Assembly (NCBI GenBank): GCA_011605725.1
Contig: JAAOZP010000004.1
Coordinates: 185,739 to 249,738 of the forward strand
Reading direction: 5' to 3'
DNA length: 64,000 nt
Source: Nitrososphaerota archaeon
GTDB taxonomy: Archaea; Thermoproteota; EX4484-205; JAAOZP01
Shown here piece by piece: positions 1,380-32,357 of this stretch. The notes beneath the pieces were generated by a model. The model did no database searches. It was given only the letters and a program-made list of their open reading frames with translations, and was not told where the DNA came from. Position 1 is the first letter of the stretch. Each line of letters starts with the position of its first letter. The translations under genes were made by a program, and so were the position numbers.

Positions 1380-1790
1380 ATGGCTGTCGAGAAGCTTTCA
1401 CTAAGATTGGCGAGGACGATCTTCTATCTTAAAGGGTTTGTCTGGCTCCTCAAGAGGAGAAGAGCATACTCGATGCAAGACGTCTTAAACCTCTTCTACA
1501 TGGATTTTCTAAAAATAGATGATAAGCATATCGAAGTCGTAAAGCTCGATGAGAACGAGCTCATAACTAGGTGTAGCAATCCATGCCCTATTTTAGAGCT
1601 TGCTAAGCGTCTCAATCTAGACACTAAGTATGTGTGTAAAGAGGTTTCTGAACCAGTCTGCAAATTCGTATTGAACAAGCTTAATCCAAGACTGGTGTTT
1701 GAGAGAAACTATGAACACATAAGACCACATGTTGAGAGCTGCGAGGAACATATATATTGGAGACGGGGTGAGAAACAAAGCGCACGCTAA
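1380..1790 (+). CDS. Hypothetical Cys-containing protein (V4R/ATC-hydrolase-like ligand-binding fold possible)
   Basis: ORF with C-x2-PCP...C-x6-C...C pattern; last codons and stop lie inside a palindrome variant (AAGCGCACGCTAA). Confidence 0.55.
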   Translation: MAVEKLSLRLARTIFYLKGFVWLLKRRRAYSMQDVLNLFYMDFLKIDDKHIEVVKLDENELITRCSNPCPILELAKRLNLDTKYVCKEVSEPVCKFVLNKLNPRLVFERNYEHIRPHVESCEEHIYWRRGEKQSAR

Positions 1791-1839
1791 ACAAAGAATC
1801 ATTGAGAAAGCACTAGGCTAAGTCAGAACTGATCCGGAG
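1791..1839 (+). pseudogene. ppsA 3'-tail fragment A (QRIIEKALG*VRTDP), between two palindromes
   Basis: Translation matches [17 protein letters not shown] of the 25436 copy. Confidence 0.7.
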
Positions 1840-2007
1840 CGCGCGCTAAACTAGTTGCATGGATTCTTGAGCATGTCGGCAGATCTGAGTTTCGAAGTTT
1901 TAAAGCATCAAGTTTAGTTAAAGCGAATTCGAGTATTTTTAAAAAAGTAGAATCGATTTTTACATTTTCTTAAGAGAAAAGTTTTTATAGTCTTTATAGT
2001 CTTTATA

Positions 2008-2265
2008 TTGATTGTGAGTACTATATCCGTTACTGAGGATGTTAAAGAAGCCCTTCTAAAGATAGCTGCGGAACTACAAATAAAGCTAGGTAGGAGAGTC
2101 GATCTGAATGATGCGATAAGATACTTGCTTAGAACTCGTGTTAAACATCCAGTTCTTCTAGATAACGCTTGTCGGCCTATTCCAGGCTTCGAGGATGCTT
2201 ATAAGGAATTGAGAAAGGAAAGGATGAGAGATGAAGAGAGAACTCGAAGGAAGCTTGGTCTTTGA
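2008..2265 (+). CDS. VapB-type antitoxin
   Basis: Small STISV-type DNA-binding N-terminus, overlaps a PIN gene; ttatagtct direct repeat just upstream may be an operator. Confidence 0.75.
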   Translation: MIVSTISVTEDVKEALLKIAAELQIKLGRRVDLNDAIRYLLRTRVKHPVLLDNACRPIPGFEDAYKELRKERMRDEERTRRKLGL

Positions 2266-2668
2266 CTCCAGTTCTATTCTCGAGCTATTATACTCTACAA
2301 GTAATGGAGTTAAACTGAAAGAAGCACTCAAGGCTGAGAAGGTTGAAGGAAATATTTCTGAAATAACTGTCGCAGAAATTAGCTACATTCTTTGCAGAAA
2401 ACTTGGTATTGAGGAAGCTCGAACCAGGGTTAAAAATTTATTGGACTCAGGTTACATCACGGTTCATGAAACTTTCAAGCTTATCGAATATGCTTCAAAT
2501 TATAAATGTAAGAGGAATCTTTCATTAGCAGACTGTTTTTCATTAGCATTGGCTAAAAAACTGACCGTACCCGTCTTGTTTGCTAGAAGGGAGAAAGAGC
2601 TTCTGGAAGAGATATCCAGTGGGCCTTTCGATGTCGAAATACTGTTCCTAGAAGATTTTACAAAATAA
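2231..2668 (+). CDS. vapC: VapC/PIN-domain toxin
   Basis: VFDSS...EITVAE...LSLADCFSLALA PIN motifs. Confidence 0.85.
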   Translation: MKRELEGSLVFDSSSILELLYSTSNGVKLKEALKAEKVEGNISEITVAEISYILCRKLGIEEARTRVKNLLDSGYITVHETFKLIEYASNYKCKRNLSLADCFSLALAKKLTVPVLFARREKELLEEISSGPFDVEILFLEDFTK

Positions 2669-2749
2669 TGATTAAAGCAATTATATGCTAAACCCATCGT
2701 TCTAAGTAAACTTTATCATGATTTTTATCGCGTGCTGTTTATTCCTCAA

Positions 2750-3127: not shown

Positions 3128-3229
3128 CAGCGCGCGCGATCATTCCACGTGCACTATTTTTAAGCACCCATATTAGTATTTTGGAAATACAAAAACTTTT
3201 TTATTCAAGCGTGAATAATCACATGCATA

Positions 3230-4924: not shown

Positions 4925-5396
4925 AAATGGTAAAGCAGGAACTCTAGTTCAGTATCCTTCAGATACTATGATTTCGACGGTAACAGGCCTTCACTTGTCT
5001 TTCCACCCTAGTGGTGTGAGCCATTGCGGACAATCAATCCTAAGACATCTTTTGACATCCGTATGGACGAGCTCATAAAGACGTTACTCCCTTGATGGTG
5101 CGCGCTATTCCGTTTTTGCGATGTCTCCATGCTTTAAATAAACATGAGAATCCACAATCATATTTTCTCAATAAGAATGCTATGTAAGAAAAATATTTAA
5201 CCTTTTCTTAGACACGAAGCAATATGCGATTCTTAACCAGCTAAAGTAAATTAGTAGCCTTGGCGCGCTACAAGTATGGCAAACAGCATTATAAGTTATA
5301 TGCAAGAAAAGAACATAGATCCGTAAAGAGGTGAAAATTCTAGAGTTACGCTTAGCTAACGAAATTGTAGAAAAACAAACACAGAATAAATTTTAT

Positions 5397-6447
5397 TCAG
5401 TAAGAAAGTTGTAGTGCTTTCATCCACTCTATGTATTTAGTTAGGTTAAACGGCGGGCTTCCAAGTAAGTAGTGATTCAAAAATTTTTTACCGTCTGTTT
5501 CCCATTCTATGACAAGCATTTTGTTCTCCTCTACTTACTCTAATTTTTCCTAGAGTAGCCTTGCTATAGGGACTAATTGAAAAATCGCCTGAGCTTAACT
5601 CTTCTTTTGTATCAGCATCAAAAACTCTGTGACTTCCTGTCTTTTCCAAAAAGGTATCGTTTACCCCAACTACTTTTATATGCCACTCCTCAGGTTCGCT
5701 TACCATTATACAGAAAGGTTCTTGAACTCTCTTTACGTAATAATAAGCAAGCTTTTTTTGAAGTAGTAGTCGACAATAGCATCTGAAATTTGGGGCCAAC
5801 AATCTATAACATTCCACCATATGATGCCCCAGATTTTGTTAGATAGTCGAGCTCTTTCTACGAAGAACTTTAATGCTTCGGCTTGAGTAATTTGACTTGC
5901 AAGTATAAAGTCGTTAAGGTTTTCGGGAATGAAACCGAAAAGTTCTTTCACCTGGTTAGCCATAAGCTCAATTCTGTTGTACTCTCTTTTTCTTGTTTTC
6001 CAGTGATCTACTGCATGAGCTCTCCAGTATTCGTTATTCCAAGGCCATAAGTAACCTTCAGGAATGAACTTCTTTAGACTTTCTAGCCTTGGACAACCAT
6101 GATAGCCTATCTCACTAATGAAGGAAGCTTTACTTTCTGTATAGAACCGGCTCTTGCAGTAATCTCTAGGTCCCCACAAGTGCATTTCTGGTGGAGAAAA
6201 CCTTTCACTTTGACCAACAACTTTATCAGAAAGATATGGCGAAGAAGGAACGTATGGCCTATAAGGATCTAATTGCTTACATACTGATGGTAAGACTTTT
6301 CTCGTTAGCACGTTGTCTGAAGGTCGAAGATTCTCTGAAATGTATGCATAATCACACTCGTTATCACCGCACCAAAGGATTAAGCTTGGATGATTTCTCA
6401 ACCTTTTTATGATCTTCTTTGCCTCTTCATATATTTCCTTCTGAAAC
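5397..6447 (-). pseudogene. GH2 beta-mannosidase-like glycoside hydrolase, C-terminal fragment with frameshifts
   Basis: RLRNHPSLILWCGDNE, PSSP, FISEIG, GIIWWNVIDCWP motifs; 5' end replaced by palindrome 6448. Confidence 0.85.
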
Positions 6448-6457
6448 TAGCGCGCGC

Positions 6458-7112
6458 GGGGGCTCCGGTTCATTCGACATAAAGGTAGAAGTCGGGAAGC
6501 ACCTAGTTGGTGGAGGAATCTATTTTGAACTTCTTTCACTGGACTTCGAAGATGTTTTCTCAGAGTACAAGAGGGTTTTGACCAGTTTCATCCTAACCGG
6601 TAGAGAAGTGAAAGCAAAGGTTGCGTTTGAAAATGAATTTAAAAACCTGCTTGAAGAATACCTAATATTCGGCGGTTTCCCGCGATCGTTAAGGAAAATG
6701 ACCAAGAGATTAAAAAAGAGCTTCTCAGAAACCTTGTGAGAACCTACTTGGAGAAAGACATCTTTTTCTTTCTGAACGTGAGGCATATTGAAAAATTCAG
6801 AAATCTGCTTCAATATCTAAGCTTAAACATCGGTTCCATGCTTGAAGTATCGTCAGTGATGAGTGAGCTCAAAATGGATTTCAGAACAGTCTAGTCTTAT
6901 CTCGCCATCTTGGAAAATACCTATTTAATCTCCCTCGTCAAGCCTTTTCACAAAAACCTCATAACCGAGCTTAAAAAGACGAGGAAGATTTACTTTAACG
7001 ACCTTGGCTTGAGAAACGCGGCCATAAACAATTTCGTCCAAACCGGAAGCAGAACAGATAAGGGTAGTCTTATTGAAAACTTCATACTGAATGAGCTTAA
7101 GACAAGTTTCGA
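6458..7112 (+). pseudogene. AAA_14/DUF4143 ATPase internal fragment
   Basis: GSGSF..., EYLIFGGFP, KIYFNDLGLRN, GSLIENFI; stops and frameshifts; palindromes at both ends. Confidence 0.8.
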
Positions 7113-7147
7113 GCGCGCGCGTGCAGGCGGAATGCTTATAGCTCGAC

Positions 7148-7882: not shown

Positions 7883-7907
7883 TATCTGGTGATCAGAACG
7901 CGCGCTA

Positions 7908-8267: not shown

Positions 8268-8354
8268 GAGCGCGCGCGCCGCAACAGCAGCGATGATAAC
8301 TCCTAGAAGGATCAACATTTTCGGTTCATACTTCCATTTCCTTAGCATTCCAAC

Positions 8355-9026
8355 TCATCTCTTTACCATCTCTTTGGTTTGGATGTAGGCTCCGTGCCAG
8401 TTATGATACCAGACCTGACCCGTGTAGGCGTTCACGCTGAGCATACCATAGGTTTTCCCATCCTTTTCGACATGGATCGTGTAGTACCCGTAGAAGGGAT
8501 GCACATCCCCAGCTATGGCGCCTGGAAGGTATGTGTCCATCCATCTCTGAGCGTACTCCTTCGCCTGATCCACACTGACCGATTTGTTTCCGATCCTTGC
8601 CATCCAGCCCATCATGCCATGCATCCCATACTTGGTGTTCCACATAATGTTCGGTCCCTGTTCGGGTCGAATGTAGTCGTTGCCCATCATTTTCATCATC
8701 CTTCCTGTGCCCGGCTTATCGATGATCATCTCAAACGCCCCAATGCCCGTGCTCCTCTCGTAATAGACAACGTAGAAGTTAAGCTCGAACTCCATGATCT
8801 CGTCAATCGCCAAATCCTCGTTGTTTAATGACTTTAAATAGTTCTCAGCGATCCTGATCGCATCGTCCATTGTGACTAGGCCTTGCCACCCAACCCCCAC
8901 GCCCTGCATTGGACACATTATTCCAAGCCCCCACATGGCAAAGGGTGCCAGAGAAAACATAAGTCCAAGGGACCCCGCTATGATTAACGCTGTTCCTATC
9001 GTTATCCTGTTTTTGCTCCGGCTCAG
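8355..9026 (-). CDS. Secreted Met/Gly-rich PepSY-like protein (probable CTG start at 9026)
   Basis: Two PepSY-like units, SVNAYTGQVWYHNWHG; frame open 22 codons above the ORF call, adding a signal-like TM segment. Confidence 0.7.
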   Translation of the reverse strand: MSRSKNRITIGTALIIAGSLGLMFSLAPFAMWGLGIMCPMQGVGVGWQGLVTMDDAIRIAENYLKSLNNEDLAIDEIMEFELNFYVVYYERSTGIGAFEMIIDKPGTGRMMKMMGNDYIRPEQGPNIMWNTKYGMHGMMGWMARIGNKSVSVDQAKEYAQRWMDTYLPGAIAGDVHPFYGYYTIHVEKDGKTYGMLSVNAYTGQVWYHNWHGAYIQTKEMVKR

Positions 9027-9133
9027 GATTCCAACTCCTCCTTCATCTTCAGGTACTGTTCCCTCGTGATCTCGCCCCTAGCGTATCGTTCCTTTAGGAT
9101 CTCAAGGGCCCTTCCCTCGCCCCTGGATTCTGA
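9023..9133 (-). pseudogene. SHOCT-domain protein C-terminal fragment
   Basis: RALEILKERYARGEITREQYLKMKEEL*; 5' part replaced at palindrome 9134. Confidence 0.8.
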
Positions 9134-9349
9134 TAGCGCGCGCCGGGATTCAAGATCCTTCCAAATCCCCCCAACCCCCTCGGGAACCCTTCAGAGTGCC
9201 CTCTTCATGGTGGCGCGCGGTGAGGCCCCACCAGAGCGCAAGCTACATTCAGCGTAGCTTACGCATAGTCATCAAAAACCCATTTCAAGCAGCCTTGTAT
9301 TAGCGAGGTAAAGTTAATTAAGCCTTGCCGCATAATTGAAGACAGAAGA

Positions 9350-9559
9350 ATGAGCGAAGTAACTTTGAGTATGGTGTATGAAGAGGTTAGGAAGCTGAGT
9401 AAGAAGCTGGATTTCCTTGAGGAGATAATTGAAGAAATAGTGATAAGGGAGCTGCCGAAGGCTAGGCTGAGTGACGAGGAGGTTTCAGAGATTAAAAGCT
9501 CGCTGGAGCAGATGAAGAAGGGCGATTACGTTACTTTAGAGGAATTGATGAATGCCTGA
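9350..9559 (+). CDS. Antitoxin of archaeal RelE-type TA pair
   Basis: Small acidic ORF overlapping a relE-like gene. Confidence 0.7.
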   Translation: MSEVTLSMVYEEVRKLSKKLDFLEEIIEEIVIRELPKARLSDEEVSEIKSSLEQMKKGDYVTLEELMNA

Positions 9560-10146: not shown

Positions 10147-10147
10147 A

Positions 10148-10510: not shown

Positions 10511-10882
10511 ATGTAGCGCGCGCTTTCGAAGCTTATAAGGCCCTTATTAACTATGTTAGAGAGAGGCTGCTCCCTCTTCGCTTTTAACCTTCATAAACAG
10601 GCTTTTGACAGATAAAAAACGCTTAAAGCGCGCGCTCCTCCTCTTAAAAAACTGCTTCAAGAAATTCTGAAGCAATTAACAGGATAGAATTTAATTTTAG
10701 AATCTGTCGTTATTCAGTTACATTTTAAAATTTTAACTATGAATTATTAAAGCGCCGTTTTTAAGGCTTTCTTAGCGCGCGCACAGCAGGCTTTGCTCAC
10801 AATACCCATTTGACACCATAGTTTTCTCTAGGCTTTCGTAAAAAGCTTATAGACCTAAACATGTATACTAAACTGAAGCTGG

Positions 10883-13418: not shown

Positions 13419-13956
13419 ACAAGCCGCTACCAAGTTGCATGAATCTCGGAACATATTGATGAACTGGCTGAGAAAAAGAGCCTTCACTCCGGGTAAGCTT
13501 ATTATGAGGGTAGAGAACAAGAAATAGACTAAAGCTAAATATAAAGGAGGCCGCATTAATTGATATGATGGAACACGTGGAGAAGCCTAAAGAGGCGATT
13601 AGAATACGTGTGCTAGTTTTAGTAACTGTGATATAAAGTATACTTTTTGACTTAGCACGTGGTAGTATAACTCTGAATTTCAGTGGCGGCTTAGTTCGTG
13701 CAATTTTCATCATGTCTCTAGGCACCGTGTAGAATAAATTGGCAATTTTAGCCCCCTTGACTGTAGTTAGCAGCCTGACTTTATTGTTTATCGACATATG
13801 TACGGATGGCGTCGGCATGGTCCGGTTCAGCGTGATTCACACCACGCGCGCGCTAGTCCATTCCACTTCTTTTCTTTAGAAAGAAGTCTTCAGTTTGCAA
13901 GAAAAATTCGAAAAAACCTTATATTATACGCTATGCTCCCCCTATTTTTCCTCGGG

Positions 13957-15081: not shown

Positions 15082-15410
15082 TTTTGCCATAGTCAAAAAA
15101 ATGGTAGGATGAAGTTTCAATTCGACAAACTATGGCACCCTATTGTTGAAACCCCTCAGTAATTGCCGATTAGTACGTAGCGCGCGCTAAGCAAGGTTCC
15201 GAGAATGAGGTAATGAGTCAGTAGGCCGAAGGATTCGAACCCTACTAATTAGAAGCAGTCTTTTTTATCAAAATCCCTTTCGTTGATCAAAGATTGGGTT
15301 GTCATCTTTGTTTGAACTCTCAATATGGATTACAACTAGGCTTAATATGTAGCGTGCGCTAGTGGAGAAAATATATAAGAAACCTAAAGGAATTACAATA
15401 TTGACCGAAT

Positions 15411-15911
15411 GTGTTTGATAGGACGCAGTATGTTGTAGAGAAAAAGTTGTTAACAGTGTTAACGTTAGGGGAGACCTATGACATCAAGGATGTGAACGGG
15501 AACCTGTTGGGCTACATTAAAAGGAACTCAAAATTTTGGTTTGAGGGAATGGACGGATCCCGCCAAGGTGAAATCCGGGATGTGGGTGGTGCATACGAGG
15601 TTTACGATGCTCGAAATCAGCTTCGAGCTACTGTAGTATGGGCTGGGGGACTGGGGCTCCGAAGTAGTAAGTGGCAGATGAAAGATCCTCAGGGCCAGCA
15701 ATTGGCCATAGCCGAGGGTGACTTTTTGGGACGTAATTATCGCATCCTAGCGCCAGACGGAAGCGCCATAGCCCAGATACACAAGAAATGGGCATCCACG
15801 AGCTGGCAATCCTATCGCATCGATATTTCACGCCAAGGTTTCGATCCCTTCTTGATCTTGAGTTACGTTGTAGTCGATATTTCACAACAAGTGACGGTGT
15901 ACTACCCCTGA
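15411..15911 (+). CDS. LURP-one/scramblase (Tubby C-like) protein
   Basis: KKLLT..ETYDIKD.NGNLLGY...IAQIHKKW...SYRIDI. Confidence 0.75.
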   Translation: MFDRTQYVVEKKLLTVLTLGETYDIKDVNGNLLGYIKRNSKFWFEGMDGSRQGEIRDVGGAYEVYDARNQLRATVVWAGGLGLRSSKWQMKDPQGQQLAIAEGDFLGRNYRILAPDGSAIAQIHKKWASTSWQSYRIDISRQGFDPFLILSYVVVDISQQVTVYYP

Positions 15912-16114
15912 CCGATTTAGCTACAAGCAGAGGAAAACCTCTTTGAATGTCAGGGAACCAGATGCCTCCAGCTCGCACCTGACCGTTGCAGAGAGCTTGG
16001 ACTTTAACGACGCCATGATTCCTTCTGTTATAGCGCGCGCCTAACGTCAAAGGTACGCGAGTCCAACTAGAGCGTGCGTATGGAGATATTAAAAGCCAAA
16101 AAGATGATTCAAAA

Positions 16115-16690: not shown

Positions 16691-16845
16691 TATTAAGCTT
16701 TATGATACGTTGCTACTTCAAATACTGCGTCGGAACACTTTACGATGCTTATGCCATGCGCATCGGTGGACCAAGCGAGACCGTAGGTCACATGGCGGTT
16801 GCACGCGCTCGCTACAATCATTCACCGAGACTAATTATATAAGCG

Positions 16846-16878: not shown

Positions 16879-17119
16879 AGCGCACGCTAACAGCCTACCC
16901 GGATAGAAGTGAAGCATTAGAACTCATAATAATCTGTAGCGCGCGCTATCTCTGCCAAGGAGTATAGCAAGCTGTACAGAAAAATTTAGAAAGCGAATTC
17001 TCGTGAGAGCACGCGCTATTTTAAAAAGTCGGTTAATTCAGGAAAAATATACCACCGGCATTATTCTGAAACTGCTTAATTCAAACTGTTTTATTTTTAT
17101 CTTATCTCCAGCACGCTAC

Positions 17120-17744: not shown

Positions 17745-18145
17745 CCATACTTATATTTTTCTCTCCTGGGACTGGTGCAGAACCTGTCAAAAGCACCACA
17801 AACCATCTATGTATGGTTTAGCTCAGCCTTTCTTCTATAACAAGGCAGGGATTTGACACGAGTTTGTTTTCCGATCATTATCCGCTTAAACGAAGGCGTT
17901 TGATTGGAAGTAGGCTGAGCGTCTAAAAAGCAGCCCCCAAGATTCCGACTACTATTGCGACTACACCGATTAGTGCTGAAACCCTCTTAGTCATTGACAA
18001 GCCTCGTTAAATCCTTCCCTATAAGGGGGTACGCTGGGTAAAATAGCGCGCGCTATACTATCTTGGGAAGCCCCACCCTTTAACGAACCTTTTTATTAGC
18101 TTAGGAGTTATGTTTTTAAGTCTCTGAAGAAATCAGTAATGCGAG

Positions 18146-18337: not shown

Positions 18338-18600
18338 TTGGCTTTTAAAATCGTCTTAACGCATCAAGCACTCAAAAGCTTCGAAAAGCTCCCCCTAAAG
18401 GTAAAAAACGCGTTTCAGAGGCCTTAGACGCTCTGGTTCAAACACCGGTTCCGTTCAGAAGCTTCGACGTTAACAAACTTAAAGGCTTTAGAAACACCTA
18501 TAGAATAAGGATAGGCGACTGGAGAATAATCTATGAATATGATTCGAAAGCAAGAGTAATAATCGTCCATGACATACTGACAAGGAAGAAAGCATACTGA
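18338..18600 (+). pseudogene. RelE toxin, frameshifted in an A run
   Basis: DVNKLKGFRNTYRIRIGDWRIIY...RKKAY*; not in the ORF track. Confidence 0.8.
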
Positions 18601-18842
18601 TTTTCAATATTTCAAGCAGTGGATTCTTCAGTCTACCCTGAGTAAGAGTATCTCTTGGCTATGACCTGCTTTCCTTTCCATATCTTTAGCTGTATGACAT
18701 GTTCAGGTGTTACAAAGAATCAGCCCTTGGCTAATTATTGCTAGGCTAAGTACAGGTAAGTCAGACAATTCCTATGAGAAAAGAATTTAAAGGCTAGGAC
18801 CCTATTTAGGGTAACGAGCTGCTATGTCGATTCCGCGCGCTA

Positions 18843-18943
18843 AAATATACGAAGTAAAAGCAAGAAGCGTAATGCATAAAACCAAAATTCTTGGTGCGGA
18901 TTGGGGTATAAACTATTATCGTGGTTGTACCCATGGGTGCATT
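18843..18943 (+). pseudogene. Radical SAM (SplB/photolyase-like) N-terminal fragment between two palindromes
   Basis: KIYEVKARSVMHKTKILGADWGINYYRGCTHGCI, cut inside the CxxxCxxC motif. Confidence 0.75.
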
Positions 18944-19040
18944 TAGCGCGCGCGCTATCCTTCAGCAGGCGAAGGGCAATTTCACTTAACGTCCTGCGTA
19001 TAAAAGAAGTTGCCGAAGGCAATTTGGGCGAAGCGCGCGT

Positions 19041-19192
19041 TACCTAGTCAAGGGCTTTCTCAAGCATAATCCTTTGCTCAATAGATGCAATCAGCTTACG
19101 TGTAAACACTGCAACATCAGGATTGATTGAGACTGAGTCGATGCTGTATCTAACTAGGAACTCGTTAAACTCCCGATGGATATTTGGGGGCT
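19041..19192 (-). pseudogene. ppsA 3'-tail fragment F
   Basis: [43 protein letters not shown]; ends at palindrome 19031. Confidence 0.88.
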
Positions 19193-19912: not shown

Positions 19913-19968
19913 GGAGTAGAAGAGCTTATTCGATCTTCCGAGGTAGCCTAACCTTTATAGCGCGCGCT

Positions 19969-20091
19969 TCTATACGGGTATTCTCTATGTCTGAGTATGA
20001 TGTGGCTACCAGTCTGATGGTCCACTTCATAGCCGATCTTGGACAGGGCCTTTACAACTTCTAGGCCGGAAACAACGGGAAGCTTAGACAT
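19969..20091 (-). pseudogene. HicA toxin 5' half, truncated at palindrome 19958
   Basis: MSKLPVVSGLEVVKALSKIGY...QTGSHIILRH...PYR, then the motif. Confidence 0.85.
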
Positions 20092-20317: not shown

Positions 20318-20485
20318 AATATTTAAGCATTACCAAAAAGACCTCCGGCGCGTGCTGGAGGATGCAGTACCCGATGACAGTAGGCCGGAAAACTAAGAGT
20401 AATAAAATTTGGTAATCTCAATGCTAAAAAAGCATTTGACGGGGTAAAACTTATATTTTTGGGTTAAAAATTGAAAAATGGGTAA

Positions 20486-21357: not shown

Positions 21358-21642
21358 TAGCGTGCGCACAACTCTAACAACAGACGATAAAGGAGAGATA
21401 GATGTATATCTCTCTAACTATGGTTCTAGCGCGCGCGACTAATTGGAGATTTTCGTAAGAAAGGGCTTTACACTTGCATAGCTAGAGACATAAGAGATCC
21501 GGAAAACACTAGGCTGATTCAGGAGATAATTAAAATCCAGCACAATGTAAGGTCTAACTTGAAGAAATATAGCCTAGGCTTGATAAGGATAATACATGAG
21601 CATGTGTTAATCTGGAGGAAGGAGTCTGTTTAAGATCAGGCT

Positions 21643-23727: not shown

Positions 23728-25339
23728 TCCTTTCCCATTTCCCATCAGGCCTTGTAAGTTGAAGCTCTAATGCATACTTTCCTTCTACATGGTCTTTTAT
23801 CAAAGGCTCAGCATACTGCCACCATCCAAACATGTAAGGCAAAGTTGTTTTTCCGTACTGAGAAATTTTTTCATGAAGCTGAGGAGAAATTATCACGTAA
23901 GGCTCGCTATGATAACCACCACTGTTTGGGTATTTATCAGTTAAAACAAGAGCAGCCCTTCCGAAAACTCTAGCAATTAGCACAGAATAGTATGGGCAAG
24001 TTTGTCCTTCCATAGGAACTACTGCTTCAAGTCGCCATGGAATAAACCCTCTTGATAGTGCCCTTGGATAACCTTGGATGAAAACAGCAACTTCATCCTC
24101 TTTCATTAAACCATCAAAAGAAACAATTATATGATCCTTTTCTACCGTATTGCCAAAAAGTTTTTTATAAGCTGCATCTGAATTTGGCCACTCACCATAA
24201 GCAGGATGCCCTCTAACCACTTCATCTATCGCAAGCAAATACCTAAGAGTTTTCTCCCTGAAATCTTTTTTACTCATTTCATCCAGCCATTGCTGTGGAG
24301 TCTTTCCATCAATACTTGAGTCTGGCGACACATTCCTCCAACCTATTTCCAGGCTAGGTGTTATTTTACCGTTAATGATGTTGTGCCACCCGCTTACAAT
24401 ATCAATCTCAAATAGATCTATAGGAAGAAGCCTTTGCCTCCTGTACCATGCTTCTATTTTTCCATCAGGTATATTCAAATCATACTCAGCTTCTCCACTA
24501 TCAAGCTTATCCACAACATATTTTACAGCCTTTTCCACAACGCTCCAAAACTTTGCTTCATCTTGAGAAGCCATTCCAGTTCCATAGCCAACATCATCAA
24601 CTTGTATAGCTCCTTCCCTCCATTCCTTCGGATATTTCAAAATATTCTCAACATGCTTCGCTAGCCTTAACATGTTAGCATGCTTTCTTGCATTATCAAA
24701 ATCCTTGTTAACCCCATCGTTTTCACCAAGCTTCCTCACGCTTGCTGAAAGAGAATCATTTCCAATCTCATTTATCAGCTTAGAATAACTTCCAAAGTAA
24801 GAAGTAGCATTGTTCAAAGCATATATCTGCGAAAACTTTTGAACTTCTCTGCCAAGATTCTGGTAAATCTTCAAAGCCTCTAAGAACAATTCATTTCTGT
24901 CTAAATTTATCCTAGGGTCTCTCTGAAACTGGTCATAAACGATTTTAACTAGGCTTGAGTTAGCAGAGTAAGCTGGTAAAACTTCTTCATAATTCTTAGC
25001 AAACTGGGAAAAATCTTTAAGAAAGTTCAAACCATCATACTCATTACTATTAGCGAAATAAAGGTAATCCAAGCTATCTTTCAGATTGCCAAAAGTTTTC
25101 AAGCTCTCTTCAGCCAAAGCTCTATCATTAGCCCAAGACTTAGCAAAGCTTACCCAAGTAGAATTACCATTCTGCTTAGGATATTTAGCTATGAACTCTT
25201 CAGCCTGCTCATCGCTAAGACCAGCATCCCTGTAGGGTCTTCTAGCCTGCTCACCCAGATAATGGTTGTAGAGGAAAACCCCAGTGGCACCGGCAGTAAA
25301 CAGGATGAGAACGATGCCTATTTCAAGCATCCTCCGCAA
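23717..25339 (-). CDS. Membrane-anchored hypothetical protein, possible transglutaminase-like C-terminus
   Basis: N-terminal TM; GQTC...IARVFG...YHSEP. Confidence 0.6.
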   Translation of the reverse strand: MRRMLEIGIVLILFTAGATGVFLYNHYLGEQARRPYRDAGLSDEQAEEFIAKYPKQNGNSTWVSFAKSWANDRALAEESLKTFGNLKDSLDYLYFANSNEYDGLNFLKDFSQFAKNYEEVLPAYSANSSLVKIVYDQFQRDPRINLDRNELFLEALKIYQNLGREVQKFSQIYALNNATSYFGSYSKLINEIGNDSLSASVRKLGENDGVNKDFDNARKHANMLRLAKHVENILKYPKEWREGAIQVDDVGYGTGMASQDEAKFWSVVEKAVKYVVDKLDSGEAEYDLNIPDGKIEAWYRRQRLLPIDLFEIDIVSGWHNIINGKITPSLEIGWRNVSPDSSIDGKTPQQWLDEMSKKDFREKTLRYLLAIDEVVRGHPAYGEWPNSDAAYKKLFGNTVEKDHIIVSFDGLMKEDEVAVFIQGYPRALSRGFIPWRLEAVVPMEGQTCPYYSVLIARVFGRAALVLTDKYPNSGGYHSEPYVIISPQLHEKISQYGKTTLPYMFGWWQYAEPLIKDHVEGKYALELQLTRPDGKWERINP

Positions 25340-25435
25340 CTCTAACAGGAATAGTCTTCACTCAGGCTTATTAGCTTTAACAGTAAGAGCCGGGGAAAAT
25401 TAAATAGAATTGAGAAAAGCGGGTTTTGAAAAAAA

Positions 25436-25625
25436 TTACTCTTCGTCTGGATCGGGCAGGTCCCAGTCGGGGTCAGTTTTGACTTGACCTAAAGCTTTCT
25501 CAAGCATGATGCGTTGTTCAATTGATGCAACCAGCTTGCGTGTGAATACCGCGGCATCAGGATTGATTGAGACAGAGTCGATTCCAGCTCTGACAAGGAA
25601 CTCTGTAAACTCAGGATATATTAGG
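25436..25625 (-). pseudogene. ppsA 3'-tail fragment G (longest, uninterrupted)
   Basis: [41 protein letters not shown] matches the archaeal PEP synthase C-terminus. Confidence 0.9.
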
Positions 25626-25740
25626 ATGCTTATTTTAACATTTGAGGAGTCTTCACCAGGAATTCCAAGATGCATGTTTCCTACTTGGGAAAAGGTTAAA
25701 ATTAAGAATTCCGTGTCTTGATTGAAGAGGCTCGGTTAGG

Positions 25741-26052
25741 ATGAGGAGAAATTTGAAAAGAGTCGAGGAAATGAAGGACAAGTTAGAGAGGTTGAAGCCC
25801 GTGTTAAGGGAAAGGTTTAGGGTGAAGACTATTGGGGTTTTCGGCTCCTATATTAGGGGGGAGGAGAGGGAGGATAGTGACCTTGATATTCTAGTCGAGT
25901 TTGAGGAAGATGCTGAATTAAGCCTCCTAGATTTCATTGGCTTAGAGAATTATTTAAGTGAAGAATTAGGCGTCAAAGTGGACTTGGTGGAGAAAAACAC
26001 GCTTAAACCCAGAATTGGAAAGCACATACTGGAGGAAGTAGAATACTTATGA
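25741..26052 (+). CDS. Minimal nucleotidyltransferase (MNT) antitoxin
   Basis: GVFGSYIRGE...SDLDILVEF...VKVDLV. Confidence 0.92.
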   Translation: MRRNLKRVEEMKDKLERLKPVLRERFRVKTIGVFGSYIRGEEREDSDLDILVEFEEDAELSLLDFIGLENYLSEELGVKVDLVEKNTLKPRIGKHILEEVEYL

Positions 26053-26390
26053 AAAGAGAATTTCTAGATTATGTTGACGATATAATTGGAGCTATGAATG
26101 ATGCTATGGGCTTCGTGGAAGGAATGAGTTATGACGAGTTTGCAAGGGATAAGAAGACTATCTACGCGGTTGTGAGAGCAGTAGAAATCATTGGAGAGGC
26201 TGTTAAAAAGATACCGGATTCTATTAAAAAGAAATACCCTGAAATACCTTGGCGGGAAATGGCTGGGATGAGGGATAAATTAATCCATGAATACTTCGGC
26301 GTCAATTTGCAAAGGGTCTGGAGAACAGTCAGAGAAGACATGCCTGCCTTAAAACCTTTATTTGAGAAAATATTGAAAGATTTAGAGTAA
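26049..26390 (+). CDS. HEPN (DUF86) toxin
   Basis: EIIGEA...IPWREMAGMRDKLIHEYFGV. Confidence 0.92.
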   Translation: MKREFLDYVDDIIGAMNDAMGFVEGMSYDEFARDKKTIYAVVRAVEIIGEAVKKIPDSIKKKYPEIPWREMAGMRDKLIHEYFGVNLQRVWRTVREDMPALKPLFEKILKDLE

Positions 26391-26396
26391 GAAGTT

Positions 26397-26558
26397 CTAT
26401 TCGTCAGAGTTGCTCATAAGGGCTTTCTCAAGCATTATGCGTTGCTCAATAGAAGTAACAAGCTTTCTAGTGAACACCGCAGCATCAGGATTAATAGACA
26501 CGGAGTCGATGCCTGCTCTAACAAGGAACTCAGTGAACTCAGAGTAAACACTTGGGAG
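26397..26558 (-). pseudogene. ppsA 3'-tail fragment H
   Basis: [46 protein letters not shown]. Confidence 0.88.
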
Positions 26559-27623
26559 CTACTTAAACAGCTCAGGGAAGTCTTCCTTGAGGAACTCTAT
26601 TTTTTCAAGCGGAAACTTATAGAGTCTGGAGTGCTTATCTACTATTATCTTACCACCTTCGATTTTTTCTTTCAAAATCTCGCGCTCAACCACCTTTTCG
26701 CTTTCTATTACTTTCGTTCTGACCTTTTCAGTGACAAGCTTGTAGTCAGCTAACCTAAGCTTGTAGCCGTCCAGATTATAGACCTTGTGTCTAGGATCCT
26801 TTAACGATTCTATCAATTCATCTCGCACGAAATCCTCGTATTTCTTGTCGAATTCCCGGTCTCTCTTCAACGGCCACTTGCAGATAACCCGGGACCAAAT
26901 TCTTTCTCTAAACGGATCATCTCTAAATAGCTTCGTTTCCTCATAACATTTCCTCCTTTCCTCGCTCGGAAACCATTCAGTCTTCATCCTCTTTAAATGT
27001 TCCGTTAATGCTTCAATCCTCTTTAGGACCTCGTTGATTATCTGCTCATCATTCATTCCGACTATATCGAACTTAAGACTAACTTCAAGTTCTGAGAAGT
27101 CGCATTTCGCCTCCCGTTGACTTACGTTCCATCTTTCTAGCGAGCTTCGTAGGGACTTCAAAAAGACCTCGATATCCTTTATCACGGCTGGCATTATCCT
27201 AGCAGCCTTCATCCTGTCCTCCCTCTCCGAAAGCATCACTGTCATTGAGTCTTCATTTGAAAAAAGGAGGAGCAACGGCCATAACGCATAGTAATACTTG
27301 CAGAGAAAATGAAGGTCAAAACCCTCCATCTCTATTTCTATTTGATCCCTTGAGATTGTTACTGTCTCAACTGAGATAGGATATGGATCTATCCAATCAT
27401 CAGGCCATTTTATAAACCTCTTTCCCTCAAAGTATACGTCGTTTATATCTGCCTGTGTATATGTATACATTAGGCCCTGTCCTTTGAAATAATCCCTGTT
27501 AGGCCTCCGACAGATCCAAAAATCCCTGCGAGACACCACACCAAATTCGCATCCATACCTTTCACTCAATTCTTTCGCAAGCCTGTTTGCCAAGAGCTCC
27601 CTTCTTTCAGCATCCATGTCCAC
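26559..27623 (-). CDS. Hypothetical protein (354 aa)
   Basis: Long ORF abutting the upstream gene; no motif recognised. Confidence 0.7.
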   Translation of the reverse strand: MDMDAERRELLANRLAKELSERYGCEFGVVSRRDFWICRRPNRDYFKGQGLMYTYTQADINDVYFEGKRFIKWPDDWIDPYPISVETVTISRDQIEIEMEGFDLHFLCKYYYALWPLLLLFSNEDSMTVMLSEREDRMKAARIMPAVIKDIEVFLKSLRSSLERWNVSQREAKCDFSELEVSLKFDIVGMNDEQIINEVLKRIEALTEHLKRMKTEWFPSEERRKCYEETKLFRDDPFRERIWSRVICKWPLKRDREFDKKYEDFVRDELIESLKDPRHKVYNLDGYKLRLADYKLVTEKVRTKVIESEKVVEREILKEKIEGGKIIVDKHSRLYKFPLEKIEFLKEDFPELFK

Positions 27624-28998
27624 TTAACCCCCGCTAAGTTCAATTGTCTCCCAGACTATTTTAACTTGATTATCTGTAATGCCGATTGCAAATGCATAAC
27701 CGTATTTCGGGAGTTCTAAATTTATTCCAGTATACTCATTAAGCTTACTCCTAAGATCGCTGTTAAGGTAATTATATCTATCTTTGAGGTCTCTCTTAGC
27801 TTCGCTTAGACGTACGCTTAAGTCCTCTCCAGCAAAGGCTGACTTCCACTCGCTTATCCATGGAATTATGATCTTCTTGTTTCTTTCATTCTTAATCATG
27901 GTAAAGGCATCGGCATAGTATTCGCTCAGAATGCGACCACTTCTTTCATCTATCTTGACTATATTCTGGCCACTTCTGTCTATTATGATTTCGCCCTCTA
28001 TTCCAAAATAACTCTTGTATTTCTTTAAAAGAACCTCATTACTGAGTTCACACCCTGCTATACCTTTAGCATGGTCTCCGAAGCCGTGGGCAGCATCATT
28101 ATACCATGTCAAGTATTCTCTAATGTTCTTCACTACCCTCATCGTCATGCTGCCTTTAGTCGCATCGCCTTCGAATTGTGGCTCTGAGAAGTAATCTTTG
28201 CTGAGAAATTCCTTCATGATGTTCTCGAGAAGCTCGCCGGGAAGCACCTTGTAATAAGTGAGTTCTCCTGAAGCCCACTTGACACGGGCAGTCTGATCGT
28301 AATCTGTCAACTCGAAAGTTATTTGGAGAACCTTGCCGTCTCCCGTGTCCGAGGCCTGGAATTTCGTAACGTTTTCTTTTAAGGATGTTGTTTTAGAAAT
28401 AGTTGATTCTGTGGGAAAAGGAGGCAACTTTCTTTGAAATGGAGAACAATATGTTGCTAGAAACCCGATTCTTTTTTGAGGGAAATAGATTTTTGAGACT
28501 ATTAGGAACCATTTACCTCGCTCTGTAAGTTGATATGTCTTCTCAACTCCTCGTTTTTTTCTCAGGTGGTTCAACTTTTAACAAGTTATGTTTAGCGAGT
28601 TCATCAACATAGGCAATGATTCGTGTTCTGGACAAACTTACTCCCCTTTTCTCAACCATTTCACAGAGTTCAGTCTGGGATAGAGATTCCTCTTTATCCA
28701 GAATATCTATAATGATCCTGTTTATAGGCTCACCGTCCAGTGTAAGCTCTTTCATTTTCTCCTCAATAATTTTGGGGCACCCTAGGTTATCTAACTTTAT
28801 TGATTTTAGAGTTGCCGGTAAGTAATCCATAGGTTGAGTTAGCCAGGCAATGAACGAATAGCCTACGATAAAAGTTACGATGAGGAGTAGCAGACGAGAA
28901 AAGGGGTCTGTTTGGAATATAAGAGGAATTATACAAATCGCTATAGCTAGCAGGCGTGAGAAAAGATCAACTAGGATGCTTTTCGCTTGTCGTAACAT
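27624..28998 (-). pseudogene. 2TM + winged-helix + possible PD-(D/E)xK domain protein, split by a 1-bp shift in an A7 run
   Basis: Removing one A at 28554-28560 joins LSRTRIIAYVDELAKHNLL to RGVEKTYQLTERG (wHTH wing); distal YADAF...SEWKS. Confidence 0.65.
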
Positions 28999-29115
28999 TA
29001 GCTATTTTATTCTTTATGCACAAATATAAGTAGGTTTAAAGTGGATTAAAAGTAGGTTTAAACGGAAAGAGTAAAATAATTTGGGTGAAATAGTGGCTTC
29101 CGAGGTGATGGATGA

Positions 29116-29894
29116 ATGCCGTCTCTAAGAACAATGATCATTATCTTAGTATCACTACTAATAGTAATCATAGCAACACTTATTGTGAACAACCCTTGGA
29201 AACCTCCTGTAGAAAAGCCTGCTGAATTGCATATTGACCTTGATTTTCCACCTCTACTTCCCGGAAGCCCTGTAAGGTACATGTCAATATAAACAATACT
29301 GGTGGAGATGCGAGGAACATTGTTTTGATGTTTAATTCCACAGCATTATCGCAAGTAAGCGATAAATTCGATCTACGTGGCGGGCAGTCTACCAGCATTG
29401 AGGTTACAATTAATGCTAATGAAATAAAGAATGATTATTATGATGTTAACATCAGTTGGAAGTATGAGGATTCAAATGGTTCTCATACTGAAGGGCCAAT
29501 TATCAAGAGAGTTTACATACTGCCGTTAGTCCAGCTCGTTGATATTAGATGGGAACCGACAGGTTTGTTTGGTCTTATTCCAAAAAATGAGATTAAGAGG
29601 ACTGATGAGACAAAACTCTATTTCAGAGTTGAAAGTAAGAGCGAGGCTACCGTATATTCTAACCTGTATTGCAAAGCTAACTTTACAATAAGCGAAGCCA
29701 TGTTGAATATAGCTATAGAACCTTCTCTAATTAATATTGAAACAATAGGTCCTCGAGGAAAAAGCAGAGAATACAATTTCACAATTAAAACAAGAAATAC
29801 TCCTCCAGGAACCTATGAAATAACTGTTTTCTTGTATTCTTCAGAATACGTGGTTACGAAACAGACCTTGGAGCTGAAGGTTGCTCCAGATTAA
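29116..29894 (+). pseudogene. Secreted beta-sandwich (S-layer/CARDB-like) protein, frameshifted near 29270
   Basis: Signal-like TM from 29116 in one frame; VNINNTGGDARN...PPGTYEITV in another. Confidence 0.55.
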
Positions 29895-30222
29895 AGACGC
29901 ATCCTTGGGAAAAATGGAAAGGAGGTGATAAATAACGGAAATTCGGTTTAGCTTCTGGGCATATGGTATACTCGCTATCGCTGCACTCTGCATAATTCTC
30001 TATTTCTTTTCTACTATAGGGGGTCACCCGGAAATCGGTTTTAATCTCCGAAACATCGCGGTTTTAATAATCGGTGCGTCTATCCTCTACATGTTTATAA
30101 AACCATTATTACAGAAATTGTAGAAGTAAAATCCATTTGAGAGCACGTTCGCTAACTCCAATGATGGCCAATGAAGAATTCAAGTAGTATATGCTCCTTC
30201 ACCGGCCTTATTAACGCCCCTT

Positions 30223-30720
30223 TCAGCAAAGCAAGGATTCCTTAAGCATTTGAGATAGGTTTGAATTGGGTTCAATATTCTGGCTTTGATAAAGTATTGT
30301 TTCTAATATTTTACGGGTTTCCTCTAAGACTCCAAGAGTTATTTGCTCATCGTGAATCTTATTTATTCCCAGTGAGGTGATTCTGCTATAGGTTTTTCCT
30401 CTCAAGAAAGGAGTATGGGAATGTGCATCTCTGATAGTAAATATCTTTTTGCATTTTTGTTTAGTCTCTGAATCAATTAAACCATGTTCTTCAGCTATTT
30501 TCAGAAGCTCCTTTCTTTCAGTGAGAAAAGGTGGGAAACCAGTTTTTGTTTTATCAAATTGTTCAACATGTTCCTTCTTAAGCGGATGAGATACTGCAAT
30601 AATGTATAAAGCAGTCTCTAACGCACAAGCACAGTAAATAACGCAGGCTCCGTATAGCCTTGCAGCAAAGGATACTTTAGCACATTGAAGAAAGAATCGA
30701 GTTAGATTCTCTACCACCAT
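30223..30720 (-). CDS. Hypothetical protein, probable HEPN superfamily
   Basis: ALETAL helix plus R-x4-H (IRDAHSH). Confidence 0.5.
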   Translation of the reverse strand: MVVENLTRFFLQCAKVSFAARLYGACVIYCACALETALYIIAVSHPLKKEHVEQFDKTKTGFPPFLTERKELLKIAEEHGLIDSETKQKCKKIFTIRDAHSHTPFLRGKTYSRITSLGINKIHDEQITLGVLEETRKILETILYQSQNIEPNSNLSQMLKESLLC

Positions 30721-31236
30721 TTTTAAGCCATTAAACCACTTTTCTTTCTAGTTATAAAGATATAACGGAAACTCTTCCCGTACGATAGCAAACACCCCGA
30801 GACACGTTCAACCATTTTTATATAAGATGACTATATTAACACTATTGATTAAACACTCTCTTCTTCCTCTTCGATCACTCAGGCCATAAGCTGTTTTAAT
30901 GGCCATTTCTTCGGCTAGCGAAGCACATAGCTTAGCATGCTACCTGAAGGGCTATAGCCACTTGCTAAGTGGAGAAATTCCTTCATCCTCCTTCCTTCCT
31001 TTATTAGGAACCTTTATTCTTATCGCTTCTTCCCCACCTATTGCTTCTGGGGCTGCCTCCTCCGTTCTTGAAAGCCTCCTCTCCATCATTGCCTTTGCTA
31101 AAACCTTTGCCTCATTAGCTAATTTCTTTGGGAGACCCAGAATTCTTGCAACCTAGCGCGCGCGAGCCTTCCGAACCTCCTATGCACTTTCCAGCTCGGC
31201 GTTTGCGATCACCTACTTCTTACTATGCAGCACCCA

Positions 31237-32249
31237 TTATATATCTTCTTCCTCTTCTTCGACTCTGCCTTCAGTCATTAGTTCCCTTAGTTGCTCAATC
31301 TCGTTGACCAGTGATTTGTAAAGCTTGTCGAGAAGATCATTTTCATCGCCTTCGTAACCTAAGAACCTTAACCAAGCTTTATCAATCGCCTGTCTAACAG
31401 GGTGTTTGCCCCTAAGTTGTTCAAGGATGCTGGGGACCTTTGTTTTCTTAAAGGTTTCAAACACCTTTAAAAGTTGCTGAGCCTCGCTATCCGTCATCTT
31501 TGAGAAATCTGGTGTGAATATTTGATCCAGCATGTAGTCATGAATCTTCATCTATGCCCCTCTGGTTTCAGTCCTTTGAATAAGGATTTGAAGCAGGCTT
31601 AACGAGCTGTTTAGCCATAATGTTAAGAGTTTAGCATTCCTACCAGTAATCTTACGTACGCACCACATATCTACACCTACAACAGGCTTATCTGAATAGA
31701 AAGCGAGTAAAGACGTTCCTGGAGCGGACAGATCGAATCGCCTAGCTAGTAAAACGTGACACATTCTACCGTTAAATCTCTCCCTCCAGCTTTCTACCAC
31801 CGGCCTCTTGAACCTATTAAGTTCTTTGCTAGATAAAGTGGCTTTAGCCATTTCTCTAACATCGTCAAACCAGGAGAGGATAAGGTAATCAGATATGTTA
31901 CCTAACATCTAATACATTAACATAGGAGATCCTTCTAAGCCCACGACTCAGAACGTTTAGAGGAATCTTGATTTTCCAATCGAGAGTCCCATGTCTAGCT
32001 ACTAGATTCTCTTTCTCAACTTTTTCAACGATCCAAACATCAATTTTCTTTTGAGCCCTCAACTCATCGTACATTATAAACCCATGAAAGTCATCAAACT
32101 TATAGTGCCTAAGATCCGATTCCTGTGCCTCTATGACCGATGATAACCGTACTAATTTATTAGACTTTAGTAATTCATCCATTAAATCATTAGGCTTGGA
32201 TCACTTACAGCTATATGTTTGAACCAGTTTTCTACGTCCCTAAAGAGCT
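31237..32249 (-). pseudogene. C-terminal remnant of a large type IIG/BREX-like DNA methyltransferase-specificity protein
   Basis: Three consecutive broken ORFs (RRFDLSAPGTSLLAFYS, LWLNSS...RTETRGA, RQAIDKAWL); bounded by palindromes 31154 and 32250. Confidence 0.55.
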
Positions 32250-32357
32250 TAGCGTGCACTAGGAAGAGCCTAAGGAGCCCCAGTAGCAGGTTTTATCATG
32301 TTATAGAAACAGGTTTGTTGAAAGCTTAAATCCAGGTACAGGAGTGTCTACTCGGTC

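Follow-up and report, generated by a model that had tools for sequence, protein, structure and literature searches.

Telomerase is known to add interstitial telomeric sequences where broken DNA has been repaired (Nergadze et al., 2007; PMC2246262), and the inserted bases are in register at 67-80% of the loci (PMC2246262). Most archaea are devoid of Ku, and the homology-independent rejoining of DNA ends in this domain is considered an open question (PMC12019639). One described activity is that of PriSL, for which annealing of ends over 2-4 G:C pairs, nucleotide addition and break repair have been reported (PMC3333859; PMC12019639).

Here, a palindromic motif is described that was noticed in a 64,000-nucleotide stretch of DNA (the window) of a Nitrososphaerota archaeon (contig JAAOZP010000004.1, positions 185,739 to 249,738). 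The observations suggest a repair route not described so far, both in this hot-spring archaeon and in some related ones. The palindrome is probably the scar of a sequence-defined end-joining reaction, a reading to which we assign a probability of roughly 0.65.

Form and distribution of the motif

A sequence-only reading of the window had proposed that about 30 copies of a 12-bp palindrome accumulate in a gene mosaic. This enrichment was borne out, as 29 near-copies with at most two mismatches were counted in the window, three of them exact, compared with 1.31 +/- 1.0 in shuffled sequences (maximum 4). Within positions 1778-32261 lie 27 of these 29 near-copies, and the stretch 21440-31150 contains none; the copies at 7111, 8268 and 21358 are present, but carry more than two mismatches. 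The genome-wide count yielded 28 exact and 76 one-mismatch copies, which are spread over the genome and not only over the mosaic, and GCGCGCGC was found to be the most over-represented 8-mer of the genome.

The conserved core of the motif is a 10-mer, A(GC)nT, whose (GC) run varies in length between scars (n = 3-6, rarely 8, mostly 4), and the outer T and A of the 12-mer are usually derived from the donor. Variants of the palindrome are CpG-type changes, and a few composite copies read (GC)nTA(GC)n. There is no conservation past the 12-mer core and there are no arms; no shared flanks were found among 275 sites, whose 550 flanks do not cluster. In agreement with the proposed rarity of the motif inside intact genes, ORFs of at least 200 aa (71% of the genome) contain only 11 of 176 genomic sites, as compared to 74% for control hexamers, a scarcity that arises partly by construction because a scar breaks the ORF. 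A literature search, with most subscription papers outside its scope, found no report on this motif or on a fixed palindromic scar in archaea.

Table 1. Scars, cut genes and deletion sites along the window, and the candidate writer gene
Position	Strand	Feature	Basis
1778..1789		scar, one CpG-type change; left donor ends 1778	G002 homologue (91%) stops here, motif-free
1837..1848		scar	motif match
3128..3139	-	scar cutting minus-strand DUF433-like C-terminus	motif match; translation only
5096..5107		decayed scar	motif match
5412..6448	-	fragment of larger gene, aa 136-488 of 492-aa donor ORF	
6448..6459		scar between two unrelated gene fragments; both donors without motif	
6460..7112	+	captured internal piece of 424-aa ATPase gene (from aa 119), scar at each end	
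7111..7124		long scar; donor ends in A, then GCGC...	
7896..7907		scar, one end of ccdA-like fragment	
8268..8281		A(GC)5 scar, other end of ccdA-like fragment	
9134..9145		scar cutting SHOCT-like gene	SHOCT by translation only
10514..10525		scar after ppsA-like tail	
10626..10637		scar; right donor starts at the scar's T	G002 homologue motif-free
10773..10784		scar	motif match
13844..13855		scar	motif match
15178..15189		exact 12-mer scar	
15350..15361		scar, CpG-type variant	motif match
15659..15715		motif-free stretch; 55-bp deletion sealed by GCGCGCGCT in another strain	run X1
16031..16042		scar, 'half-perfect'; right donor joins at shifted register	
16799..16810		decayed scar cutting gene fragment	aa 264-307 of 387-aa ORF elsewhere in genome
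16878..16889		scar after short ppsA-like tail	
16937..16948		exact 12-mer scar; immediately preceded by ~1 kb of other DNA in another strain	
17007..17018		scar	motif match
18044..18055		exact 12-mer scar; rearrangements here in several strains	
18552..18668		motif-free stretch; 115-bp deletion sealed by GCGCGCGC in another strain	run X1
18831..18957	+	scar pair around ~100-bp radical-SAM-like fragment	translation only
19031..19042		scar cutting ppsA-like tail, aa 739-784 of 800	
19958..19969		scar cutting hicA-like gene, aa 1-41 of 75 kept	G002 donor 96% identical, motif-free
20328..20409		80-bp deletion sealed by GCGCGCGC in another strain	run X2
21358..21369		scar cutting cutA-like gene, aa 63-104 of 117	G003 donor motif-free
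21427..21438		scar	motif match
31154..31165		scar	motif match
32250..32261		decayed scar, edge of conserved core (cdc48 region)	
35138..35149		scar in core DNA, in place of 112 bp still in G002	
51895..51906		isolated scar outside mosaic	motif match
G000:C7:378954-379793		candidate: compact PriS-like primase-polymerase, ~265-280 aa	

Origin of the motif at joints

When fragments were aligned to intact homologues, as the sequence-only reading had suggested, homology was found to stop within -2 to +2 of the motif in 56 of 79 donor ends, the donors being relatives at 84-99% identity and not the true parents, and the intact homologues are motif-free. The motif marks joints of unrelated DNA pieces, as had been claimed. 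The gene cuts at 6448, 7111, 19958, 21358 and 19031 were confirmed against intact homologues; an intact, motif-free donor of the ATPase piece, whose match ends at 7112, exists in G002 (90%) and in run X2. Other named cuts are backed by a weak DsbD_2 match (ccdA) or by translation only (SHOCT, DUF433 and radical SAM, the latter cut after its second Cys), and a piece of about 70 bp between the scars at 9134 and 9211 is homologous to C4:74224-74297. Pfam did not confirm the GH2 identity of the fragment at 5412-6448, nor was a restriction-modification remnant confirmed at 32250, where matches in five relatives start at 32261 and same-species strains carry a ligase gene upstream of the joint instead.

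Comparison of the locus across strains revealed the motif at deletions where the window has none. In five deletions found in other strains of the species, it sits between the two sides, and no TA is present at the ends; the ends of 20328..20409 are motif-free in the window, with a decayed copy inside near 20348. The motif occurs at plain deletions of 55-2300 bp as well as at in-place replacements, and the crossover register is variable (-2 to +3). An independent 12.8-kb contig spans 1700-14464, supporting the junctions, and the joints are therefore not an assembly artefact; an assembly or library artefact is further ruled out by the mutational decay of the copies and by the lineage-specific motif. 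By comparison with relatives and strains, the motif appears as an addition at the joint that is absent from both parents, and the presumed scar is seen to seal deletions, in-place replacements, rearrangements and inserted fragments of 60-700 bp. The proposal of a DNA capture or shuffling system holds in that fragments are inserted, but capture alone is too narrow a description because the scar, found genome-wide, seals deletions, rearrangements and insertions alike.

The added bases were found to keep the register set by the final base of the donor, such that T is followed by A, A by G, G by C and C by G. This rule is followed by 44 of 61 ends (72%) and, at the strain deletions, by 8 of 10 ends, and is violated by about one quarter of ends; the G-to-C and C-to-G steps are in part a consequence of site selection. 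In a non-circular test, the base before an untemplated A is a T in 18 of 20 cases, as compared to 3 of 11 cases for a templated A (p = 0.0007). Judged by these comparisons, the addition follows the order T-A-G-C-G-C, starting from the base on which the donor ends.

A proposed end-joining reaction and its candidate writer

In the proposed reaction, a polymerase would extend each 3' end as if copying 5'-(GC)nTA-3', guided either by a fixed template or by a protein-set rule. Being self-complementary, the GC tails on any two ends could then anneal with variable overlap, which would explain the range of n = 3-6, and fill-in and ligation would complete the joint. Any linear fragment present could be captured in this way, so that gene mosaics would accumulate where insertions are tolerated, with gene-fragment capture as a by-product. 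The 'half-perfect' copies, which the sequence-only reading took for possible hybrids between a true site and a secondary one, are better accounted for by a donor end that joins at another register of the tail. The earlier idea that a trans-acting activity writes the motif is supported. No template for the tail was found, and none of the 21 tRNAs found carries (GC)nTA. The search for reverse transcriptase (RVT_1) was negative across 17 genomes of the genus, as was that for Ku in G000, G016, G003, G125 and G041.

As had been noted, the window itself encodes no writer. The candidate, which lies outside it, is a compact PriS-like primase-polymerase; the odds that it is the tail writer are put at slightly below even. 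It matches PF01896 above the cut-off, and its structural model (pLDDT 87) matches PriS structures (E 1e-9), shows the AEP fold with conserved DxD, SGxRGxH and a third Asp, and is closer to PriS than to LigD-Pol. Fold and motifs place it in the archaeo-eukaryotic primase superfamily, with predicted nucleotidyl transfer. The candidates form a separate compact clade without an adjacent PriL gene, and the G000 copy carries substitutions at some residues that are otherwise almost invariant (such as Arg223 to Lys). In Brockarchaeota, the gene overlaps the end of a second radA, which was rejected as a general marker as this linkage is seen in Brockarchaeota only. Prim-Pol family PF09250 was likewise set aside, being present in 3 of 29 genomes, G000 not among them.

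Within the genus, the candidate is intact in six scar-bearing genomes and broken in a seventh, and was not found in eight genomes with few or no scars. G010 and G013, which are without it, contain mostly decayed copies (exact 3/64 and 3/43). Intact candidates, belonging to two subclades, are carried by scar-rich Brockarchaeota and Bathyarchaeia, and, in a predictive test, Bathyarchaeia found via the candidate protein proved to be scar-rich (174 versus 4.4 expected in loci); AGCGCGCGCT counts amount to 40-119 in G041, G042, G044, G131 and G139. The association in Bathyarchaeia is 6/17 versus 5/132 (p = 0.0003) with gene fragments included and 2/17 versus 2/132 (p = 0.06) for the full-length candidate only; it rests largely on gene fragments, and related genomes are not independent. 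Five scar-rich genomes, several of them drafts, show no detectable candidate (G125, G161, G137, G183 and G009); the scars of G125, whose scaffold has 17 gaps in 139 kb, and of G161 look fresh. Divergent homologues occur without scars in G136, G180 and G023, and three mobile-element-like contigs carry homologues and show no scars. In a tentative extension of the end-joining reading, a primase-polymerase that is mobile and dedicated to this task would furnish any DNA end with one universal, self-complementary adaptor, in register with the last base of that end and without an RNA or DNA template, which would let the cell join any two ends, repair breaks and capture environmental DNA.

Alternative explanations

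The writer of the same end-joining scar might instead be one of the housekeeping enzymes (replicative PriSL, a PolB or another nucleotidyltransferase) or the product of another gene, the extra primase being only frequent cargo of the mosaics. This possibility carries some weight, given the scar-rich genomes without the candidate, the fact that scars cut candidate fragments just as they cut other cargo, and the terminal-transfer and GC-annealing activity of PriSL in vivo (PMC12019639). It sits less well with the PriS of scar-rich G000, which is sister to that of scar-free G003 and shares no feature with scar-rich Bathyarchaeia in the inspected alignment blocks; neither tree nor alignment reveals a special replicative PriS. 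PolB number is equal in G000, G016 and G003, with no copy-number difference within the genus, and the products published for PriSL are indels of 1-2 bp instead of a fixed 10-mer. Unlikely, in turn, is a pre-made palindromic oligonucleotide or existing scar serving as linker or template, to which ends anneal by 1-3 bases before ligation or extension, with no tail being written. The register rule and the palindrome would be explained equally well, and the composite copies would fit; flanks of existing scars, however, are not copied, as an apparent excess of shared upstream hexamers (33 versus 13 pairs) was traced to three composite copies. The lack of a template-bearing tRNA also speaks against a linker, and the variable run length probably better fits slipped annealing of two tails.

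A relaxed site-specific recombinase, Cas1-like integrase or transposase, as first suggested, could target the palindrome and duplicate or hybridise it; in favour are the symmetry of the site and its presence on both sides of inserted pieces, as expected of a target duplication, and G000 encodes one Cas1 and one tyrosine recombinase, the latter beside a cdc6-like gene on another contig. The motif-free parents largely refute this improbable reading; the motif is found at deletions where neither end had a site, the register varies and arms beyond the core are lacking. Cas1 was not found in G125 and is broken or partial in G041 and G161; its distribution does not appear to track the motif. The consensus TA-core-TA could also suggest an excision footprint of IS630/Tc1-mariner-like or other IS elements, with a TA duplication around element-end remnants. 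The A is usually absent from the parent, so that the TA is not duplicated, the strain deletions show no TA at their ends, and no full element adjoins any of the 275 sites; such a footprint is very improbable and, for IS630, is refuted, DDE_3 transposase not being found in five genomes. Hardly credible is a HIP1-like methylation or protein-binding site accumulating by point mutation: the palindrome is over-represented and its variants are CpG-type, but it is inserted at joints rather than arising by substitution and avoids long ORFs, and this indel-linked origin refutes the idea.

Implications and comparison with described systems

Because the scar is fixed, joining events can be counted one by one, and its CpG-type decay allows a rough dating; break repair, rearrangement and DNA uptake thereby become readable from genomes of uncultured lineages. 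Genome size hints at a contribution to genome growth: within the genus, scar-rich genomes measure 2.0-2.3 Mb and scar-poor ones 0.6-1.8 Mb, a comparison confounded by phylogeny and completeness. With a register rule and a candidate enzyme that is small and has a single domain, the mechanism is amenable to a test in vitro. If it holds true, an enzyme that puts a defined self-annealing tail on any DNA end would represent a new polymerase chemistry of potential use in DNA assembly or library preparation.

Integrons (IntI/attC) likewise show a repeated site between unrelated genes; here, however, attC hairpins are absent, genes are cut internally and the donors lack the site. HIP1 of cyanobacteria is abundant in coding DNA. 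It is also an over-represented palindrome (PMC4390886), whereas the present motif is indel-linked, with 11 of 176 sites in long ORFs. With neither attC arms and whole-gene cassettes nor abundance in coding sequence, both comparisons fit as poorly as the sequence-only reading had judged. In Ku/LigD NHEJ and AgaPP-type primase-polymerases, an AEP polymerase bridges unrelated ends and fragment capture is possible, but insertions are variable or flank-templated (PMC11724360), while here they are fixed and Ku was not found in five genomes. In the MMEJ of Sulfolobales PriSL and its polymerisation across discontinuous templates, an archaeal AEP performs terminal transfer followed by G:C annealing independently of Ku; that enzyme is replicative PriS with PriL and leaves mostly 1-2-bp indels without a fixed sequence (PMC3333859; PMC12019639). 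Joining over pre-existing microhomology is not what is seen here, where a fixed 8-12-bp insert parts the ends. DRT3 and DRT7 make fixed, low-complexity, duplex-forming DNA without a nucleic-acid template (PMC13174585; bioRxiv 10.64898/2026.04.18.719102) and provide a precedent for a protein-set rule, but are RT enzymes whose product is free defensive DNA, not inserted at chromosomal joints. Telomerase insertion resembles the scar in placing a fixed repeat at a break, often with a deletion and in register (72% here). In contrast to that rare, eukaryotic reaction, RNA-templated by a reverse transcriptase and with a repeat that is not self-complementary, the insert described here is palindromic, has both ends in register and occurs hundreds of times per genome, in a genus with no reverse transcriptase found in 17 genomes. 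If the writer is indeed an untemplated primase, it would constitute a prokaryotic, RT-free counterpart of telomerase healing that has turned into an end-joining and genome-expansion pathway in two archaeal classes.

Distribution and Unit of the Motif

The window holds three exact copies of TAGCGCGCGCTA and 29 copies with at most two mismatches, compared with 1.3 expected. In the 2.23-Mb archaeal draft genome from which the window was taken (G000; its kin bear the name Candidatus Brockarchaeota), TAGCGCGCGCTA occurs 28 times exactly and 76 times with one mismatch, concentrated in variable regions, and among 8-mers GCGCGCGC shows the strongest over-representation (229 observed vs. 8 under an order-3 Markov model). 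The actual unit is A(GC)nT, termed scar here, of which the genome contains 59 copies with n = 3 (a count that includes background occurrences), 88 with n = 4, 20 with n = 5, two with n = 6 and one with n = 8. In half-sites, the base preceding the A is a T in 52% of cases and no conservation extends beyond it. Long ORFs contain just 11 of the 176 scar sites. One scar (L007:8961) forms the centre of a perfect 28-bp palindrome, resembling an end joined to its own copy.

Gain of the Motif at Joints

Comparison with relatives and paralogues yielded 79 ends at which homology stops at the motif edge while the intact donor runs on into unrelated bases; at 56 of them, homology ends no more than two bases from the core. 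The proposal of a palindrome enriched and placed at the joints of a mosaic (about 30 copies of 12 bp, 1778-32261) is confirmed. The scar at 6448 joins two different genes whose donors both lack the motif, the scar at 35138 stands in place of 112 bp still present in the related genome G002, and at locus L041 the motif takes the place of approximately 2 bp in otherwise colinear sequence. For six pieces bounded by scars (65-654 bp), motif-free donors align over the full length. In sequencing run X2, from another population of the same species, the ATPase gene is intact and its internal 650 bp correspond to the piece between the window scars 6448 and 7111. Contigs from three such runs (X1, X2, and X5) carry deletions of 55, 115, 80, ~570, and ~2300 bp relative to the window, which is motif-free at those ends, and have 8-10 motif bases between the two sides. 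These deletions are the cleanest evidence that a joint gains the motif. We consider it about 85% probable that the scar is written at the joint and was absent beforehand.

Larger rearrangements were also observed. In same-species strains, the ligase gene immediately precedes cdc48; in G000, 132 kb separate the two genes, which are oppositely oriented, and each edge has a scar no more than ~30 bp away. Gene content varies among strains at scar joints, as where ~6.4 kb in one strain (L109) correspond to 160 bp in G000, beginning at a scar.

A stretch of 9.7 kb within the claimed mosaic is scar-free; between two ppsA-like tails it contains a piece that matches the related genome G007 at 78%. The last ~60 codons of the ppsA-like gene are repeated many times in the window, and several of these tails are oriented toward the end of a small pair of toxin-antitoxin-like genes. 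Since the tails also recur in the scar-free genome G003, the arrays are attributed to another process, probably one of integration at the 3' end of ppsA. The 3' end of an NADH-dehydrogenase-like gene is duplicated close to the window start (88% identity).

Features of the window and of related loci
Feature	Sequence	Position
ppsA-like tail	window	9840-9925
ppsA-like tail	window	10409-10508
ppsA-like tail	window	16119-16222
ppsA-like tail	window	19042-19236
ppsA-like tail	window	25366-25654
ppsA-like tail	window	26418-26606
ppsA-like gene, intact	G000:C4	36021-38426
NADH-dehydrogenase-like gene	window	13798-15081
Duplicated 3' end of this gene	window	1009-1210 and 14943-15146
Scar-free stretch	window	21440-31150
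Variable region, same-species strain	L109	13320-19727
Variable region, G000	G000:C7	383387-383548
dinB, second radA, compact primase	L043 (G000:C7)	8639-11797
Compact primase gene	G000:C7	378954-379793
Scar upstream of dinB/radA/primase	L043 (G000:C7)	8626
radA copy with in-frame stop	L112 (G125)	10163-11137
Locus with tyrosine recombinase and cdc6-like gene	L002 (G000:C17)	5276-6340 and 8672-9895
(GATC)3-type runs	L060 (G042)	9290, 19645, 19883

Register of the Added Bases

The last base common with the donor was compared with the first added base. Of 23 ends with T as the last donor base, 18 continue with an added A, and of 15 ends with A, 11 continue with an added G; for the G-to-C (9/13) and C-to-G (6/10) steps, the selection of sites dictates the outcome in part, which does not apply to the former two. 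In the 20 cases in which the donor lacks the A, the base before it is T 18 times, compared with 3 of 11 cases in which the A is donor-derived (p = 0.0007). The strain deletions obey the rule at 8 of 10 ends. The apparent outer T and A of the motif and its "half-perfect" copies are explained by this register rule.

In some Bathyarchaeia (L075 of G043 and L084 of G139; also G156, G160, and G119), the CG phase (TCGCGCGCGA or TACGCGCG) is preferred to A(GC)nT, and lineages may therefore differ in the initial steps of the rule. In another Bathyarchaeia locus (L060), self-complementary (GATC)3-type runs, which may represent a different written tag, flank and cut a broken second compact-primase copy.

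A Candidate Scar Writer

A search for primases revealed that scar-bearing genomes of the genus have a second, PriS-like copy of 265-280 aa, whose catalytic motifs are intact and whose fold is that of an AEP. This compact primase is intact in G000, G002, G006, G007, G012, and G016 and broken in G008; G009, G010 and the eight genomes of the genus in which scars are few or absent yielded no copy. Wherever the gene is intact in Brockarchaeota, it and the end of a second radA overlap. In this species only, dinB adjoins the pair, in the same orientation and with a scar closely upstream. In G125, two ribosomal-protein genes flank a radA copy that is interrupted by an in-frame stop. The primase copy of G000 is more divergent than those of G007 and G041. 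Members of the clade are annotated in the Atlas as hypothetical proteins, and a literature search found neither the scar nor the clade described.

In a forward test, homologues were fetched from outside the genus and their loci were then checked for scars. In Bathyarchaeia loci found through these homologues (~42% identity), GCGCGCGC again ranks first among 8-mers (174 vs. 4.4 expected), with 255-434 copies per genome. Among 151 Bathyarchaeia, most have few copies and 19 have at least 85. After exclusion of the two genomes used for ascertainment, the primase or a fragment is present in 6 of 17 scar-rich compared with 5 of 132 other genomes; the association loses significance when only full-length copies are counted (p = 0.06). 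Speaking against the candidate, no copy was detected in the many-scar genomes G125, a scaffold whose frequent gaps limit this absence, G161, G137, G183, and G009. Homologues occur on integrase-bearing contigs, which binning may miss. In the primase tree, copies of scar-poor genomes fall in side branches, separate from two groups of scar-rich genomes, of which the Bathyarchaeia group has weak support. The compact primase is proposed only tentatively as the scar writer, at slightly less than even odds.

Two metagenome contigs (L126 and L127) carry homologues beside integrase, MCM, and AEP-TOTE genes with no scars nearby, a context that suggests carriage by mobile elements.

Proposed Mechanism and Comparison with Known Systems

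The sequence-only reading had invoked a recombinase or repair activity that joins DNA at, or writes, the site. Writing is supported by the motif-free donors and the strain deletions; recombination at an existing site is not supported, being at odds with the motif-free parents and the variable register. These features, together with the variable run length, also disfavour Cas1 and transposon footprints, and element ends were found adjoining none of the sites. The sole tyrosine recombinase of G000, a 407-aa protein with a C-terminal zinc ribbon, is encoded near a cdc6-like gene, in what is probably an integrated element.

A tail-and-anneal form of end joining is reasonably likely. Every end would be lengthened along T-A-G-C-G-C, the self-complementary tails would pair with variable overlap, and fill-in and ligation would complete the joint. 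What fixes the register might be the protein itself, a nucleic-acid template or a pre-made linker.

Telomeric repeats inserted at breaks are in register in 67-80% of cases (PMC2246262), and the bases added here likewise continue in register; unlike in that system, the genomes of this genus that were searched yielded no reverse transcriptase. Archaeal PriSL adds nucleotides, pairs ends over 2-4 G:C and repairs breaks, leaving small variable indels (PMC3333859, PMC12019639), whereas the joints described here carry A(GC)nT inserts. The scar can be considered as a form of end joining with inserted bases; confirmation of a dedicated, template-free enzyme would make it categorically new.
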